Shown here piece after piece: positions 31,989 through 53,233 of a DNA stretch of 64,000 nt. A model generated the notes under the pieces. It was given only the letters and a program-made list of their open reading frames with translations. It searched no databases and had not been told where the DNA came from. Origin of the DNA: a phage; the sequence record PZ242158.1; one strand, given 5' to 3'. Position 1 is the first letter of the stretch. Each line of letters opens with the position of its first letter. Position numbers and translations under genes: made by a program.

Positions 31989-32753
31989 TTGAAATTCATC
32001 TACAAAGAACACTACCACAAAGGTGTTGTGTGGAGTCTATTTGACGGGTCTGGTGGTGCAGTTATTGACTGGGCGAAAGCTGGGTACCTGTGCCTGTGCT
32101 TTAATGCAGAAGGTGCTGACCACGGCAGTTATGCAGAGGTGATAACCGATCATCCTAACATTCACTATGTGGATTATTGGATTGACCCATGGTTCCCTCA
32201 GGAAACTTTTTGCATGTATCCAGCTCCAGACTTTATTCTTGCATTTCCTCCGTGCACGCATTTAGCGGTATCAGGTGCTGCACATTTTAAGAAAAAGCTG
32301 GCTAAGGATCCTTTGATCCAAATTAATGCTGTAAAGGATGCTCGGGTTGCGGAAGAGTTGGGAGAGATTTACGATTGCCCGTGGCATGTAGAGAATCCTG
32401 TAGGGGTTATGTCCACACTGTGGCGAAAACCTGATTACCGTTTTCATCCTTCGGATTATGGTGGGTATTTACCGGAGGATGATGTAAACCCCTGGTTTCC
32501 TGAATTTATAGCTCCACGTGATGCCTATCCAAAAATAACTTGCGGCTGGATAGGCAATGGATTTATAATCCCGGCCACAAAACCTGTCCCGCAAATAGTT
32601 GACGCGGTTAGCGGGTATTCCATGCAACACGCCAAGCTGGGTGGAAAGAGTGCAAGAACGAAGATGATCCGAAGCCTCACGCCACGTGGCTGGGCAAAAG
32701 CCGTATTCTTAGCAAACGAGCCTGTAGTAAGGAGCAGAATTAATGGGAAGTAA
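31989..32753 (+). CDS. C5-cytosine DNA methyltransferase-like protein (small, atypical)
   Basis: Motif I-like LFDGSGG, motif IV-like AFPPCTHLAVSG (Pro-Cys), motif VI-like VENPVG; start placed at TTG 31989 after AGGAGA; the tracked GTG 31959 lies inside the terminator. Confidence 0.4.
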   Translation: MKFIYKEHYHKGVVWSLFDGSGGAVIDWAKAGYLCLCFNAEGADHGSYAEVITDHPNIHYVDYWIDPWFPQETFCMYPAPDFILAFPPCTHLAVSGAAHFKKKLAKDPLIQINAVKDARVAEELGEIYDCPWHVENPVGVMSTLWRKPDYRFHPSDYGGYLPEDDVNPWFPEFIAPRDAYPKITCGWIGNGFIIPATKPVPQIVDAVSGYSMQHAKLGGKSARTKMIRSLTPRGWAKAVFLANEPVVRSRINGK

Positions 32754-34821
32754 ATTTATGGCATCTGCATACAACCGTTTCGGTGAGCCAAACCCGAAAG
32801 CAACTAAGTATAAAAGTGGGGGGAGTGTGAAACGAGACTATCGTGATGAAAAAGAGGTTGAAACTGTAGAGACTGTTTTAGAAAATACTAAAATCGTCCC
32901 TGTCCCACAACAAAATATCGGTCTGATGGCTGCACAATATTTTGGTGTGCGATCAGCATTATCCCAAGAAGATGGTGTGACAGTCACTGCAACATATTTC
33001 CCATATTACGACCGCTACGGAAATCTGTCCGGTTTCAAAAAGCGTGACTGGACGATTCCTAAAGAGCAAAGAGGCCATTTCTCCGTTGTTGGCATAGTAA
33101 AGGCTAACTCTCAGATGTTTGGTCAAAAGCTGTGTGCATCTTCCAACAACCGTAAGCAGATTAACGTTTGTGAGGGAGAAGGTGATGTTATTGCAGCATG
33201 GCAGGCTGCATATCAGATACAAGTAAAAGGGATTCTCACCAACGCTAAAGCCCCGGCAAAGGTGAAACAGTGGGCTAAAGAGGTCCAGGACGGGATCGAT
33301 GCAGTTATCAACGGTGGCGATCTGGCAGGAAAACCATGCCTGCCTTTTGTTGGAATTAACTGTGGATGTGCAAACGCAGTAGATACTTTTGCAAACAATG
33401 AGAAGTTTATCCGTAGCTATGGAACAGTTGTGCTGGCAATGGATAACGATGCAGCTAACGAGGTAGAGAAGCAAAAACACGTCATTAAAGGTGTTGAGGC
33501 CACGCACAATATCGCAGCATTTTTGATGGCTGATAACGTTTACCACGTAGAATACCCTGGTGAAGTAAATGACCCTGACGGGGTAAAAGATATCCGTGAC
33601 ATGCTGAAGGCTAAAAAGCTGGAAGATATTGTCAACATGTTCCGGCACCCTGTTAAATATGTGCCTGATGCTGTGTCGGATTTAGAAGACTTCTCTATCG
33701 AGTCTTTGCGGAAAAAGACTTCCAACGGGGTAGATATCAGCGCAGAGTTCCCAAAACTGCAAAAAATGCTAAAAGGCTTGCACAAAGGGACACTCGTAAT
33801 GCTTACAGGGCCATCAGGGGGCGGTAAAACAACTGTAGCTAAAAAACTGGAACATTGTATTGCAAGATACCTAATGGACCCGACATGCCCGAAGGCTGAT
33901 GACTATGAAGAGGATGATCGTCTATGTATGATCCATCTTGAGGAGGACCCAGAGGAAGCAATTAACTCCTTGTATGCAAACCAGTTAGGGTTTGATGTTA
34001 AAGAGTTTGTTGAAGATCCTAGCCAGTTTTTAACTGATCAAGAACACGCAGAGATTCACCAATCATGGGCAAAAGCTGGAAAAATCAAAGTGTTCAAACA
34101 TTTCGGATCTATTCCGGTGGACGAGTTGATTACCAAGCTTAAGCAAATGGTTTGCCTGTACCATTGCCGTTATATTGTGCTGGATCACCTGTCCATGGTA
34201 ATTTCAGGGCTTAATGTTAAGGATGAGCGAAAAGAACTGGACATGGCTATGACTCAGCTGGCTGCGTTTTGTAAGCAGTTTAACGTGTTTATCTTGGTGA
34301 TCGCTCACCTCAAACGTACAGAGATTGTGCCTCCTAAGGACAAGGATGGTAACCCGTTACCTTTCTGGTATCCTGTGCGAAAAGAGAATTTGCGAGGATC
34401 GGCGGGGCTTGAACAGTTGAGTTGGGTAGTCATAGGTGTCGAGGCCGAAGAAATGGTGGATCGTTCTCGTGGACGTGTCCGTCTGGTAGGTCTTAAAAAC
34501 CGTCCAGCAAAAACTCTAGGTATTGCTGACACTTTGGTTATGGACCCGCACACAGGTAAGTTCCATGATGCCAGTAATTGGTACTGGGACAAAGAAATGC
34601 AAATGTTTACAGACGGAGAAGGTGGGGAGGTTGTTTGGAGACCTCAGGCTATGTTTGAGGATCAGGAGCATGCAGTTGTAGAAACACCTATGGGCAAGGT
34701 TGTGGCTGATAAGGTTGTAACTCCTACTGTTAAGCCTGTTGACACGCAGGAAGACCTCCAGTACGATGATCCATCCTCTGACCCGGTCCCTGGTTTTGAG
34801 GATGATGAAACGCCTTTTTAA
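32743..34821 (+). CDS. bifunctional DNA primase-helicase (TOPRIM + DnaB-family, T7 gp4-like)
   Basis: TOPRIM VCEGEGDVIAA and VVLAMDNDAANE; helicase Walker A LTGPSGGGKTT, Walker B-like IVLDHLS, H4-like RGSAGLEQLS; acidic C-terminus ending DDETPF. Confidence 0.8.
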   Translation: MGSKFMASAYNRFGEPNPKATKYKSGGSVKRDYRDEKEVETVETVLENTKIVPVPQQNIGLMAAQYFGVRSALSQEDGVTVTATYFPYYDRYGNLSGFKKRDWTIPKEQRGHFSVVGIVKANSQMFGQKLCASSNNRKQINVCEGEGDVIAAWQAAYQIQVKGILTNAKAPAKVKQWAKEVQDGIDAVINGGDLAGKPCLPFVGINCGCANAVDTFANNEKFIRSYGTVVLAMDNDAANEVEKQKHVIKGVEATHNIAAFLMADNVYHVEYPGEVNDPDGVKDIRDMLKAKKLEDIVNMFRHPVKYVPDAVSDLEDFSIESLRKKTSNGVDISAEFPKLQKMLKGLHKGTLVMLTGPSGGGKTTVAKKLEHCIARYLMDPTCPKADDYEEDDRLCMIHLEEDPEEAINSLYANQLGFDVKEFVEDPSQFLTDQEHAEIHQSWAKAGKIKVFKHFGSIPVDELITKLKQMVCLYHCRYIVLDHLSMVISGLNVKDERKELDMAMTQLAAFCKQFNVFILVIAHLKRTEIVPPKDKDGNPLPFWYPVRKENLRGSAGLEQLSWVVIGVEAEEMVDRSRGRVRLVGLKNRPAKTLGIADTLVMDPHTGKFHDASNWYWDKEMQMFTDGEGGEVVWRPQAMFEDQEHAVVETPMGKVVADKVVTPTVKPVDTQEDLQYDDPSSDPVPGFEDDETPF

Positions 34822-34879: not shown

Positions 34880-37303
34880 ATGAGCATGTGGTCGTTCGAT
34901 TTTGAGTCATCCGGTTTGCTGGAAGACCCAGATCTTTATTATCACTGCGGCCTGTTTAAAGAGCTGAATAAGAACCGTTTTATGCTGTTCCTTCCTCTGA
35001 ATGACCGCACACACTACTCCGAGGAGGATATAGAGAAGGCCAAGAACTTTATTCTGGCAAAGAAAACTCTTTATAAGGATTTTGAAGTTCGCATAGCAGA
35101 TTTTTCGGAGTTGGAAGGTTGGCTTACAGGAAATTCCGACTGGTCACCAACAGCTTTGAACTGCCATAACTGCTACAGTTATGACTTTATGCTGATGGAG
35201 AGATTATCCGGTATTCATTTTGATATGTTCCGTGATCCTAAATGCATGGGGACTATCAACGACCACCAGGTTAACCTGTTTGATACGTTGGCTATGAGCC
35301 GAATCTTGTGGCCTGATCGCCCTTTACCAAAAGGTTGTCCGGACGCTGTATTCAACCCGGTTACTAAGAAAATGCAACCTGTTGGTCCTCACGGCCTTAT
35401 GGCATGGGGCTACGCCCTTGGTAACCAGAAAGTTCAAATTGATGACTGGCGCGATCTTCCGCTGTGGAAATATGTGGATCGTGTGTTCGAGGACGTTATC
35501 ATCCAGGAGTTGCTCTGGAAAGAGTTGGTAGCGGAATCAAAAGGTGTATTCTACGGCAAATCTGACATGCAGAACTTTATGTATGACCCTGCCAAAGAGA
35601 AGCCTAAAGGATTCAAGAAGATTACCTGGAAGAATGCATTACGCCGAGGCATGCTGCAGCATTTCCTGATGGAGCTGCAGGCTCGACAGGGTGTGTATTT
35701 CGACATAGATGGGGCTATTGCTTTACGTGACCGCTGCGATGCGTGGATGAAAGAGATCGCTGATCGTGTTGAACCACAACTTCCTTTAAAAGAGTTATCA
35801 ATGTCTCAGCGGCCTAAGTTCCCTGAAAAGCCGTTTAACCAGGATGGGACAATCTCCAATAATGGTTGGAAATGGTTAAAAGACAAGCTTGGCTACCCTG
35901 TGGACATGAGTGCTTTAGAATTCAAAGCTCCTCCTAAGCGAGCATTTACCTCCACAGGAGATGTCAGTAAGATGGGGATAAAATGGTGTGAAGAGATGGG
36001 CTGTAAAGACCCTGACAAGATGGCGGATTTCTTGAGGGGCTATATCAAGGGCACCTCCACACCACAACCTTTACCTAAAGAGCTAATGGATCAGGCAATA
36101 AGTGATCTACAGCAGAAGCGAATGCCTGACTGCAAGATACCTATGAAAATCAGTAATCAGGACGATATTAAGCGATACCTGATCAGTGCTGGTTGGCTTC
36201 CGACAATGTGGAGAACTAAGGATGTAACTAAAGACAGCAAGAAGAAAGCTCTACCTGATGCAGATGTTGATGCACGAGTGTATGCATATATGGACGAGCT
36301 TTTAGAGTCAGAGTATTGTGACCTAATTATCAACTTCTGGAACAAAACTGATGCTAAGTTCCAGACAACCGTGCACAAGTTCCGAAGCTTTCCTAACTCC
36401 GAAAGGATTAAAAAGGAAGTATTCGGGAAAATACGTAGAAAAGCTAGGGCACTTATTACTTCTCCGCAACTGAAAGATACGTTTGGACACCTATGCCCGA
36501 ATCTTGAAAAATTGAACGGAGAGATGGCTAAAGATATCGTCTTGTGGTTATCATTGCGAAACCGCAGATCGGTCCTTGATCCAATCAAGGAGGATAAGGT
36601 TGATACTGGTCTTCTTAATCACCCACGTTTGAAGATTGACCATAAGCTTCCTGCTAAAAGTTCTGGATTAACAAACACTTCCCGACAGAAACACAGTATT
36701 TGTGCAAACATGCCTAAACCATCTCCTAAAGTGGTTATGGGTAAAGAGATGCGTAGTCTGTGGGGTGTTCCTCCAGGATACTTTGAGATCGGTATTGACG
36801 GGTCCAACTTAGAGCAGCTTATCGGGGCTTGGGGTGCCTTTGAGTTCGACAACGGCCTGTATTACGATGTTGTAAGTAACGGGGACGCACACCAAAACAA
36901 TGCTGAGGCATATACAAAAGTAGCAGGTAGAGAGGTGTCTCGTAACGACGGTAAACCTATCACGTATGGGGTTATGTATGGGGCACAAAAAGATAAAGTT
37001 GCAGATATGCTGGACATCTCTCCAGAGTTGGGACAAAGGGTAATCGATGCACTCTGGGATGCCAACCCTGGTCTTAAGGGGCGTAAAGAAGATCTGGAGA
37101 AATTCTGGGAAGCAACGGGTAAGAAGTTTATCTACTCTTTTGATGGTCATGCTATCTGGACCCGATCTAAACACTCTTTACTTAATGCATACCAACAAAA
37201 TGGCGGCGCATCGTTGTGTGACTTAGTTGGGATACTCATGCACCATCAAATGGTGAAGCGTGGGTGGTACGATGAAGGTGTTCGTCGTATTATCTATTAC
37301 CAT
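34880..37303 (+). CDS. family A DNA polymerase, exon 1 (3'-5' exonuclease plus polymerase motifs A and B)
   Basis: Exo I FDFESSG; motif A EIGIDGSNLEQL; motif B RNDGKPITYGVMYG; frame ends ...RIIYYH just before motif C, then K and stop inside the intron. Confidence 0.8.
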
Positions 37304-38145
37304 AAATAACATTGTGGCTTCGTGCAGTGATGCACGTCGAAAACCTCTTTAATTGACGGGAAGGCTAAGTTGACTTTTACACCTAAACATGGTAAAAGCT
37401 CAATATGCTAATCCGCAGCGAAGACTAAAGGGGTGTAGTTAAAATGGCTAGATCAGTTGATTATCACGGATATACCGTGTTTGATGATGGAACAATACCT
37501 TTATCGAAACGTGATCATACAACAATGTTTTGTTTTGATAATGGTCGAGGTTACCTTTGCGTAACCATGTTCATCGAGGGGAAGCAGTGCACAAAAGGTG
37601 TCCACCACTTGGTTGCTGAATGCTTTGTATCAAACCCTGATCCTGAAAGGCTCACATGGGTGAACCATAAGGACGGAAACAAATACAACAATGCATACTG
37701 GAACCTTGAATGGACCACCCCTGGTGGAAATATCAAACACGCTTATGATAATGACCTCAGAGTAAGGCCAGTCGGTGAGTATAATGCCAACGCTGTACTG
37801 ACCGAGGATGAGGTAACGGAGATTTGCGAACTGTTACAGAGTGGTCTACGACAATGCGAGATTAGGGATCTTGGGTATCCTTATGAGACGGTCAGAGCCA
37901 TAAAGCAAAGAAGACAGTGGAAACATATCTCTAAAAACTACACCTGGTAGTAACGTTCAGAGACTATCGAAAGCATAGCGCCAACATAAATTGGTGCGAA
38001 GAAGCGAGTAGAGTAGGCCAGCAAGTGCGGTCGAAATGGGAGGTGCCTTGGTAACAAGGTAGTGAGATAGTCCGATCCATACAGGAAACTGTATGGCTGT
38101 GCACGTAATGGTGCGGGGTAGCTTAACGACCTACCTGAACTATTG
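37304..38145 (+). mobile_element. group I self-splicing intron (842 nt) carrying an HNH homing endonuclease
   Basis: Conserved P (aattgacgggaagg, 37341), Q (aatccgcagc, 37400), R (gttcagagacta, 37955) and S (agatagtcc, 38065) elements; 5' exon ends in U, intron ends in G at 38145; splice joins YYH to DEYQLQV. Confidence 0.75.
37444..37950 (+). CDS. intron-encoded HNH homing endonuclease
   Basis: VNHKDGNKYNNAYWNLEWTT (HNH_3-type motif); own SD AAAGGGG; lies between the Q and R elements. Confidence 0.7.
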   Translation: MARSVDYHGYTVFDDGTIPLSKRDHTTMFCFDNGRGYLCVTMFIEGKQCTKGVHHLVAECFVSNPDPERLTWVNHKDGNKYNNAYWNLEWTTPGGNIKHAYDNDLRVRPVGEYNANAVLTEDEVTEICELLQSGLRQCEIRDLGYPYETVRAIKQRRQWKHISKNYTW

Positions 38146-38499
38146 GATGAGTACCAACTTCAGGTCCCTGACACACCTAAGTATAAGACTGTGTACACCT
38201 TCGACACAATTGAAGAATTGGAAGCATTTAAGGCAGAGCAGGAGGCCAAACTTCATGTGTTCGACGGTCATAAGTACAAAAAGGCACGCAAGGATGAAAA
38301 CGGAAACGAAGTGGTTGACAGAGACGGAAACACGGTGTACGATCCTATCCTGAACGATGACGGAAAGCTTGAACTTATCTGGAGCCCTGTGGGTGAAATG
38401 GTGGTGCATTGCTTCTGGCAAGCTTCTAAAATGATGGGAGTCCCGTTCCAGATCACAGGTGAATACTTGTGTGGTCGTAACTGGGGTGATTGTCACTAA
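38146..38499 (+). CDS. family A DNA polymerase, exon 2 (motif C and C-terminus)
   Basis: Frame opens at 38122, no ATG/SD; begins DEYQLQV (completes the HDE motif C) and ends GRNWGDCH with the C-terminal His conserved in Pol A enzymes. Confidence 0.6.
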   Translation, partial: DEYQLQVPDTPKYKTVYTFDTIEELEAFKAEQEAKLHVFDGHKYKKARKDENGNEVVDRDGNTVYDPILNDDGKLELIWSPVGEMVVHCFWQASKMMGVPFQITGEYLCGRNWGDCH

Positions 38500-52416: not shown

Positions 52417-52797
52417 ATGAAAAACACTACTAAAGCTATTGACACCGTTATGTTTAACCTGGTTACATTCCGTGAAGATATGAAAGATCTTCCACGTGAA
52501 ACAGTGTGCGACCATATCGAAAACTATCGCAAACTAATCAAAGAGTTGCCTTTAAAACGTGACCAGTACGCGGCTAACGCTATGCTTAACGCCATGATCA
52601 AAAAGATGATCCAGTGTGATTTAACTCTGGCCTATGATTATGCAGGCGGTCGTTTTGCAGTATACAATCAGCCCGTGCCCGGTATGAGCACCACCGAAGA
52701 ATTGCACGCGTTAAATCTGAAACAAGATGTATGGGATAACATGCCCCGCGTGGTGGTGTGGGCAGAAAGCGGAAAGATTTACGGCGATAATTTTTAA
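52417..52797 (+). CDS. hypothetical protein
   Basis: Start at ATG 52417 after AAGAGGAAAA. Confidence 0.45.
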   Translation: MKNTTKAIDTVMFNLVTFREDMKDLPRETVCDHIENYRKLIKELPLKRDQYAANAMLNAMIKKMIQCDLTLAYDYAGGRFAVYNQPVPGMSTTEELHALNLKQDVWDNMPRVVVWAESGKIYGDNF

Positions 52798-52861
52798 TCA
52801 GGTAACAGGCGGCATATTTGCCGCCTTATTGTTAAACAGAACTGCAAAAGAGGTACATAGA

Positions 52862-53233
52862 ATGGAATTTATTATTTTGGCTGTAGTAGTTGCCTTGTTC
52901 AACGCCTGGATCGCTGGCAAGATGGGTAGATCCGCTTTTTTATGGTTTATTATATCTATTTTCCTGGGGGTGGTTGCAACTATTGTACTTGTTATCCTTG
53001 CAATTGTTGACAAGGGGAATAATAGAAAGGGTAAAGTATTTTCAGACCTGTACGACGCTCAAACATTTGTCAACGCCTACTACAGCGATCTTCCAGTCTC
53101 CCTACGTTGCAGCCTTGCACAACAGGTTTTCGATGAAGCTAAAACCAGAGATCACGCCCATGAGATTTGTTTAACTGAGGCGGATCGCCTATTTGAGAGG
53201 AATAGAAAATATGTGGACCAGCCGTTTAAATAA
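52862..53233 (+). CDS. membrane protein
   Basis: Start at ATG 52862 after AAGAGG; two hydrophobic helices (FIILAVVVALFNAWIA, FLWFIISIFLGVVATIVLVILAIV). Confidence 0.4.
   Translation: MEFIILAVVVALFNAWIAGKMGRSAFLWFIISIFLGVVATIVLVILAIVDKGNNRKGKVFSDLYDAQTFVNAYYSDLPVSLRCSLAQQVFDEAKTRDHAHEICLTEADRLFERNRKYVDQPFK

Follow-up and report, generated by a model that had tools for sequence, protein, structure and literature searches.

The DNA polymerase gene located at positions 34880–38499 of a stretch of sequence record PZ242158.1, from an rV5-like coliphage of the genus Vequintavirus, is very probably interrupted at motif C by a self-splicing, mobile group I intron that carries an HNH endonuclease gene, with the two polymerase exons being ligated in the RNA. 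Positions refer to the whole stretch that was analysed (64,000 nucleotides (nt), referred to as the window), and all features described here are on its plus strand. The evidence consists of the anatomy of the locus, the exact boundaries of the insert, a conserved and covarying RNA fold, an intact reading frame across the spliced exons and a presence/absence polymorphism among related phages. The intron is an already known kind of element, which is found at a described site and is annotated in near-identical genomes.

The locus contains three open reading frames (ORFs): the exon 1 ORF (34880–37309), which encodes 809 amino acids (aa) ending in ...RRIIYYHK; the HNH ORF (37444–37950, 168 aa); and the exon 2 frame, which is open from 38122, ends at 38499 and reads ...LLDEYQLQV...GRNWGDCH. 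Polymerase exon 1 itself (34880–37303, codons 1–808) takes in the 3'-5' exonuclease domain as well as motifs A and B, and reaches as far as the first strand of the motif C hairpin. It ends with His808, whose CAT codon (37301–37303) is followed by AAA and the stop codon TAA (37307–37309), consistent with the preliminary description of this DNA, according to which the polymerase frame stops at 37309 after YYH-K and lacks motif C. Polymerase exon 2 (38146–38499, codons 809–925 plus the stop codon) starts with Asp809-Glu810 of motif C and continues through a clade-specific insertion of ~65 aa to the C-terminal ...NWGDCH.

Joining 37303 to 38146 in silico produces a 2778-nt ORF for 925 aa. In this product FDFESSG is located at residue 6, motif A (EIGIDGSNLEQL) at 636, motif B (RNDGKPITYGVMYG) at 688 and YYHDEYQLQV at residues 806–815, the C-terminal His is present, and the residues spanning the junction are IIYYHDEYQLQVPDTPK. 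The family A motif set (Exo I, A, B, C = HDE and the C-terminal His) occurs in one polypeptide only once the exons are joined. The preliminary description had placed FDFESSG and motifs A and B in exon 1, had proposed that this join restores HDE and had estimated the product at about 925 aa; the three motifs are indeed found there, the length is exactly 925 aa and the join is confirmed by natural intron-less alleles.

The product spliced in silico has more than 100 uninterrupted counterparts of 925 aa, which match it along its entire length (100%) with 99–100% identity. T7 DNA polymerase (gp5) aligns unbroken through the junction (residues 633–813 with T7 468–658), with YYHDEYQL opposite WVHDEIQV, and positions 1–185 of the PHROG 8888 profile are covered by the tail of exon 1 whilst positions 186–295 are covered by exon 2 (E=5.8e-58). 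The alignment of the exon-joined protein to family A references, which had been suggested as a check, is continuous across the junction in both cases. Exon 1 matches PHROG 17 (E=1.2e-90), and the Pfam DNA_pol_A match extends from residues 620–742 with exon 1 alone to residues 620–822 with the spliced form, for which the score is 31.8 bits and under the cut-off of 34.3.

For the structural context of the junction, P0002, a near-identical polymerase without the intron, was modelled with AlphaFold from an alignment of 18 diverse polymerases; the mean predicted local distance difference test (pLDDT) value is 84.1 and the predicted template modelling (pTM) score 0.77. In the model, the motif C hairpin is made by strands 802–807 and 810–816 and carries His808-Asp809 at the tip, and the best Protein Data Bank (PDB) matches of the model are T7 DNA polymerase structures (E ~1e-25, target-normalised TM-score 0.62–0.70). 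The spliced product is a T7-like family A replicative polymerase of 925 aa.

The group I intron occupies 37304–38145 (842 nt). It follows U37303, begins with AAAUAA, which in unspliced RNA read in the exon 1 frame gives a Lys and a stop at the intron start, and terminates with G38145 (omega-G); the U before the intron and the G at its end had both been pointed out in the preliminary description. In phage slur16 the polymerase is encoded by a single 2778-nt coding sequence (CDS), whose alignment with the window lacks exactly 37304–38145 and reads ...TATTACCAT/GACGAATAT... (the slash marking the site of the intron). Five more intron-less Vequintavirus phages have the same junction (...YYH/DEY...) and lack the same 842 nt. 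Because natural intron-less alleles lack exactly these 842 nt, the boundaries are fixed at 37303/37304 and 38145/38146, and the splice sites proposed earlier are identical to those of the intron-less alleles and to those implied by the joined polymerase CDS of the BASEL phages. The same intron is located at this point, TACCAT/A...UG/GAUGA, in 12 other genomes that were retrieved (rV5, HMD-6, JEP1, Mangalyan, Av-05, 19-1-2, SSE121, A5-4, phiTE, CB7, Aeromonas phage 4L372D and Vibrio phage K412), and each of the 13 homologous introns ends in G.

A scan with Rfam matches family RF00028 at 37294–38095 over the full model (1–253 of 253) with 40.5 bits and an E-value of 1.2e-8 for the region and 7.2e-7 for the whole window; RF00028 is the sole Rfam family at E<=0.01 in the 64 kb. 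The alignment contains a 510-nt insertion, which holds the ORF, in P6 and a 68-nt insertion between the P7 5' strand and the 3' strand of P3 (P3'). The score is under the gathering cut-off; the insertions in P6 and at P7.1/P7.2 are penalised. Such a scan and a fold of P1–P9 were the computational checks proposed in the preliminary description: the former gives a significant full-model match, though below the gathering score of 50, and the latter is supported by covariation among ten homologous introns.

These ten introns, aligned with their ORFs deleted, come from Vequintavirus, Avunavirus, Seunavirus, an unclassified Vequintavirinae phage and a Vibrio phage. RNAalifold recovered P1, P2, P3, P4, P5, P7.2, P8, P9, P9.1 and P9.2, and P7 was entered by hand as a pseudoknot with P3. 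Across the 65 pairs from P1 to P9.2 (including the P3/P7 pseudoknot), 98.6% of the cells are in standard pairs and compensatory changes are found in 26 of the 65. The observed pairing values were reached in 0 of 500 shuffles, and when the 3' partners were slid by 1–3 columns pairing was 35–41%, with at most 4 compensatory pairs. With the ORF deleted, the intron of the window gives a fold with z = -3.9 relative to shuffles.

P1 (37300–37317) is made up of CCAU/AA and the internal guide UUGUGG (37312–37317), with U37303 forming a wobble with G37314; all six pairs, including the U.G wobble, are invariant in 10 of the 10 introns. CAUU at 37310–37313 may, judging from its sequence, form a four-pair P10 with GAUG of exon 2. 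The P2 hairpin (37321–37336, CGUGCA-GUGA-UGCACG) has compensatory changes in five of its six pairs. The P3 5' strand CCUCUU (37344–37349) pairs with the covariation-supported 3' strand GGGAGG (38038–38043), forming six pairs that are 100% paired, two of them compensatory. The P4/P5 region (37351–37419) comprises element P (37351–37364), the P5 extension hairpin (37374–37398) and element Q (37410–37419). The P5 extension (P5a) hairpin, CUUUUAC/GUAAAAG, is present in the minimum free energy (MFE) fold and covaries in Av-05 (CUUAUAA/UUAUAAG). P6 is interrupted by the HNH ORF, which is looped out of it: the 5' strand and extension (37420–37443) contain ACUA at 37424–37427 and GGUGUAG at 37432–37438, and the 3' strand (37938–37954) consists of CUACACC, UGG and UAGU, which include the last codons and the UAG stop of the ORF.

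Element R and the P7 5' strand (37955–37966) contain G37960, a bulged A and then GACUA, which pair with UAGUCC (38068–38073) in element S and the P7 3' strand (38065–38073). All six pairs of P7 are 100% paired and two are compensatory (G-C to A-U and U-A to C-G). Elements P, Q, R and S are therefore present in the order that the preliminary description had given. P7.1 and P7.2 are located at 37967–38037; P7.1 (GCGCCAA/UUGGUGC, 37978–37997) is in the MFE fold and covaries in Av-05 and 19-1-2, and P7.2 (38016–38032) has six pairs, two of them compensatory. The presence of P7.1/P7.2 between P7 and P3' is the hallmark of subgroup IA in the Michel-Westhof classification, and by this placement the intron belongs to subgroup IA (IA2-like, with IA2 and IA1 not separated). 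The remaining helices are the P8 hairpin (38044–38061; seven pairs, five compensatory), P9 (38077–38096; eight pairs, four compensatory), P9.1 (38101–38114; four pairs, one compensatory) and P9.2 (38116–38136; six pairs, three compensatory).

In the mechanism we propose, the polymerase gene would be transcribed as one pre-mRNA, in which 37304–38145 would fold into the subgroup IA ribozyme and excise by two-step, guanosine-initiated transesterification. P1 would present U37303 in the U.G wobble for step one, and G38145, aligned by the short P10 between GAUG of exon 2 and CAUU, would be the leaving group in step two. Ligation would bring together the codons of His808 and Asp809, creating the junction ...UAUUACCAU/GAUGAGUAC and restoring the HDE motif C at the tip of the β-hairpin, whereas translation of unspliced RNA would end two codons into the intron (AAA UAA) and yield only a product that lacks motif C. 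The HNH protein would presumably nick or cut intron-less alleles in co-infecting relatives, and repair would then copy the intron, together with a short flanking stretch of exon, into the cut allele (homing).

Splicing has been observed for a homologous intron. In cells infected with Pectobacterium phage CB7, reverse transcription PCR (RT-PCR) and Sanger sequencing have demonstrated splicing of the intron that contains the HNH gene CB7_50 and separates polymerase exons CB7_51 and CB7_49 (PMC7344957). The CB7 intron and its phiTE homologue (Certrevirus, which belongs to the same subfamily, Vequintavirinae) have the same YYH/DEY insertion point, and they are homologous to the window intron at the 5' end (AAGUAACAUUGUGGC) and in the 3' half, with ~75% identity over 108 nt. 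The CB7 intron differs in its P5 extension and in its HNH ORF, which is another, shorter one (127 aa) that overlaps the Q element with its first codons (MGNQQ); further upstream, the CB7 polymerase gene contains a second intron, which is absent from the window. The alternative endonuclease gene, of 127–130 aa, is carried by the same intron in phiTE, CB7 and Aeromonas phage 4L372D. It starts AUG GGU AAU CAG CAG, overlapping the conserved Q element, and upstream of it the P5 extension contains a consensus-like TTGACA-N16/17-TATGAT or TATAAT. The distribution of the two genes suggests that one intron has been invaded independently by two endonuclease genes.

The 168-aa ORF of the window intron is predicted to encode an I-HmuI-type HNH homing endonuclease. 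It matches PHROG 59 'HNH endonuclease' (E=9.3e-38), and the closest solved structure is that of I-HmuI from Bacillus phage SPO1 (PDB 1U3E, E=4.5e-6), with the catalytic DH...N...N region aligned as VNHKDGNKYNN...NLEW opposite VDHKDGNKDNN...NLRW of I-HmuI; similarity between the two proteins is limited to the N-terminal ~90 residues. The ORF is 95–100% identical in ~29 phage records and 72% identical in Av-05. It is preceded by the Shine-Dalgarno (SD)-like sequence AAAGGGGUG at 37427–37435, in agreement with the earlier view of an HNH ORF with its own SD.

A long-range stem, formed by 37424–37438 (overlapping AAAGGGGUG) and 37938–37951 (the last codons and the stop), encloses the whole ORF. Equivalent ORF-enclosing stems of different sequence are found in Av-05, SSE121 and A5-4, covering the AUG in SSE121 and A5-4, and in HMD-6 and JEP1 the same intron has a short 15-nt hairpin instead of the ORF. 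A local fold of 37410–37470 over the ribosome-binding site is not better than shuffles (z = -0.62); the pairing relevant to this site is the long-range one with the 3' end of the ORF. In T4, translation of intron endonucleases is under structural repression. By analogy, the ORF-enclosing stem appears to resemble this arrangement and may control translation of the HNH gene.

A sigma-70 promoter for the endonuclease gene, TTGACT-N17-TAAAAG (37370–37398), was considered and rejected. It was not called by a promoter scan, the region contains eight promoter-like sites against 6.8 expected, which is no excess, and both 'hexamer' regions are strands of the hairpin that covaries in Av-05.

Relatives of the phage differ in the state of the locus. 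About 31 records contain the 842-nt insert, in others the insert is shorter, at 276 nt (rV5) or 328 nt (HMD-6 and JEP1), and dozens contain none, and the states of intron with ORF, ORF-less intron and no intron coexist among phages that are >90% identical. The ORF-less copies, of 254–328 nt, retain the fold. Exon 2 starts with GATGAGTACCAA in six of six intron-containing Vequintavirus alleles, whereas five of six intron-less alleles have GACGAATATCAG, with four synonymous differences in the first four codons (window 38146–38157); the sixth, Murica, has the intron-type flank. Database-wide, ~14 intron-less records, including Murica, MaxBurger and JohannBauhin, have the intron-type junction (at least 96.7% identity over 90 nt), and ~29, including slur16, have the other type (at most 93.3%). 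In every intron-containing genome, across all genera examined, exon 2 starts with GAUGA, which would permit the four-pair P10 with CAUU (37310–37313). The flank pattern fits co-conversion during homing, a P10 requirement and endonuclease resistance alike.

A wider interpretation can be offered tentatively, and as a whole we consider it rather doubtful. The Vequintaviruses may represent every stage of the homing cycle at one site, namely an intron with its endonuclease, two independent ORF-less introns and two classes of empty site. The GACGAATATCAG class might then consist of endonuclease-resistant alleles selected in an arms race, and the GATGAGTACCAA class of recent precise intron losses or susceptible targets, whilst the ORF-enclosing stem might couple endonuclease translation to intron folding or splicing. 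The four clustered differences of the GACGAATATCAG class are located in the stretch at which binding and nicking by an I-HmuI-like enzyme would be anticipated.

Several points weigh against a spliced, mobile intron in this phage, some of them by lending weight to another explanation. A search of the whole window at the Rfam gathering threshold (50 bits) gives no match. The covariation set consists of 10 sequences, some of which are closely related, and the structure was partly obtained from the same alignment. That this phage splices the intron is deduced from the homologues and from its requirement for a working polymerase. The Pfam HNH_3 match of the HNH ORF is weak (E=2.8e-3) and under the cut-off, the endonuclease activity being a prediction, and the ORF-less derivatives in HMD-6, JEP1 and rV5 imply that the ORF has been lost repeatedly. 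The last two points would fit an intron that splices but whose HNH gene is an inactive or decaying passenger, the element persisting by vertical descent and by recombination between co-infecting phages. We regard this as unlikely, given that the ORF is intact and conserved and keeps the catalytic DH...N...N residues of I-HmuI, and that the GATGAGTACCAA flank is common to all six intron-containing alleles while most intron-less alleles differ from it, as expected from co-conversion.

It is much less probable still that the RNA is not spliced and that two polypeptides, of 809 aa and, starting from a TTG at 38143, of ~118 aa, assemble after translation. The nrdA gene of Aeromonas phage Aeh1 is reportedly split in this manner, into two halves, by the homing-endonuclease gene mobE. 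The TTG is located one codon before Asp809 and is used by gene callers, and several to many GenBank records list exon 2 as a separate polymerase CDS. The CB7 paper likewise describes a non-splicing, HNH-associated interruption, CB7_245, and cites the Aeh1 precedent (PMC7344957). There is no SD ahead of the TTG at 38143 (ACCUGAACUAUUG); the preliminary description had stated that exon 2 lacks both a start codon and an SD, and it is right about the SD but not about the start codon. Such a split would separate His from Asp at the tip of the motif C hairpin. Compensatory changes preserve the group I fold from genus to genus, for which there would be no reason if the RNA were not a ribozyme, the fold is retained in the ORF-less copies, and the homologous CB7 intron splices. 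An element of another kind is hardly credible: relatives do appear to have an intein elsewhere in the polymerase gene, but an intein is excluded here because of the in-frame stop (TAA, 37307–37309) two codons into the insert, no group II intron family is among the Rfam matches of either the region or the window scan, and an assembly or insertion artefact is excluded because the same insert is present at the same coordinates in ~31 independently sequenced phages.

A group I intron at this position of a family A polymerase has counterparts outside the Vequintavirinae. The T7-like phages phiI and W31 have introns at E. coli Pol I position 881, the His of HDE (PMC3428280). In K1F, which is also T7-like, the polymerase is split at WVH/DELQ, the same His/Asp site, and in phiI, W31 and K1F the family A polymerase is next to a gp4-like primase-helicase, as in the window. 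A T7-like phage intron is said, in an abstract from 2004, to contain an HNH gene in P6a and to self-splice in vitro and in vivo. The K1F and window introns can be aligned only in the core elements that are universally conserved; the P2 and P9.1/P9.2 of the window intron have no equivalent in K1F, whose guide sequence, GUGCAC, also differs. This core-only alignment does not show common descent of the two introns, so the same site is claimed and not orthology; the shared site could be due to independent colonisation of the same conserved sequence.

Other group I introns in phage family A polymerase genes with an HNH nicking endonuclease are those of SPO1 and SP82 (I-HmuI and I-HmuII), Bastille (I-BasI) and Pf-WMP3 (I-PfoP3I). 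SPO1/SP82-type introns are located at position 674, in the fingers subdomain and not at motif C (PMC3428280).

Closer to the window, the BASEL phages WalterGehring (MZ501111), HeinrichReichert, EmilHeitz and AlexBoehm, as well as CM1, FV3 and APECc02, have a near-identical locus; in these Vequintavirus genomes the 3620-nt locus is 95–98.5% identical and contains the same 842-nt insert and the same 168-aa HNH ORF. In the WalterGehring record the polymerase CDS is joined from two pieces that span the same 3620 nt, and a 'putative homing endonuclease' is annotated within this span. In the BASEL paper comparative genomics was used to set intron boundaries (PMC8594841). The rV5 genome paper describes an intron in the terminase gene only and gives the polymerase as 775 aa (PMC3606486). 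No paper on the Vequintavirus polymerase intron, its ribozyme structure or its splicing was found in the literature searched.

The finding adds little new biology, as HNH-bearing group I introns have been familiar in polymerase genes of phages ever since SPO1, and this insertion site ever since phiI and W31. Its practical value lies in annotation: in the records of many relatives, among them rV5, CM1, FV3, HMD-6 and JEP1, the polymerase appears either as two or more CDSs or as a truncated protein of 775 or 809 aa, and some of these records also contain small, spurious ORFs within the intron. The intron escapes detection at the default Rfam threshold, and the coordinates and covariation-backed structure permit records to be corrected. 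With its coexisting allele states, the genus also lends itself to the study, in a natural setting, of how introns are gained, endonucleases lost and target sites made resistant. In the rV5 reference genome (NC_011041, locus 705–980), the intron is a divergent, ORF-less copy of 276 nt. The record contains two 'DNA polymerase' CDSs and the hypothetical ORFs 226 and 227; ORF 227 is inside the intron and ORF 226 starts inside it, and both are probably spurious.

The part of the polymerase that follows motif C is longer than in T7, with 115 residues after HDE compared to 49 in T7 (704-residue chain, PDB numbering). The preliminary description had remarked on about 60 extra residues here, and this holds, although the feature is clade-wide: the tail is 84–136 residues long in 20 diverse full-length relatives from a representative search, and ~67 residues long in the Aeromonas and Vibrio phages that have the same intron. 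The post-motif C insertion spans polymerase residues ~817–882 (window 38170–38400) and in the model consists of a strand (823–827), a helix (830–842) and a low-confidence loop (845–872). Residues 845–872 (KLHVFDGHKYKKARKDENGNEVVDRDGN...), with pLDDT below 50, are probably a flexible, charged loop. The tail is a general feature of variable length in this phage polymerase clade and is not peculiar to this genome, and it has no visible link to the intron.

Directly upstream of the polymerase gene, a T7 gp4-like primase-helicase is encoded at 32743–34821 (Pfam DnaB_C, E=1.9e-13; AAA_25, E=2.1e-15), which is annotated in phage Mangalyan as DNA primase/helicase. The source phage is assigned to the rV5-like coliphages by the 95–98.5% identity of its locus to theirs, and 123 database records match the locus, including Shigella phage CM1, I29, WalterGehring, FV3 and APECc02. 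Sixteen records numbered MG0656xx and named 'Campylobacter phage' (host Campylobacter jejuni) are 87–96% identical to the locus over its full length and cover all three intron states; the host and name labels of these unannotated records look doubtful. A second 168-aa ORF in the window, at 52727–53233, was considered as a paralogous endonuclease and rejected, as it has no similarity to the intron ORF (E=0.58).

Other insertions are found in the polymerase genes of relatives. Exon 1 of JEP1 and Mangalyan encodes 1132 aa, compared to 809 aa in the window, owing to an in-frame insertion of ~323 aa after ...NGDAH. This insertion begins with CYSGDTQILTEKG and ends with ...VAVCGN, followed by Cys instead of Gln, and contains LAGLIDADG-like segments. 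It bears the signature of an intein; Pfam finds no intein domain in the polymerase protein that contains it (P0121). The window is without the 323-aa insertion, the equivalent site being after codon 671 (~36892/36893). In Av-05 (583–1300), SSE121, phiTE and CB7, a second HNH-containing insertion is located upstream, next to motif B, at a site equivalent to codons 697–699 of the window (~36970). Many polymerase fragments in the databases end at query residues 697–699 or 808–817, and these two sites appear to be recurrent break points across the clade.

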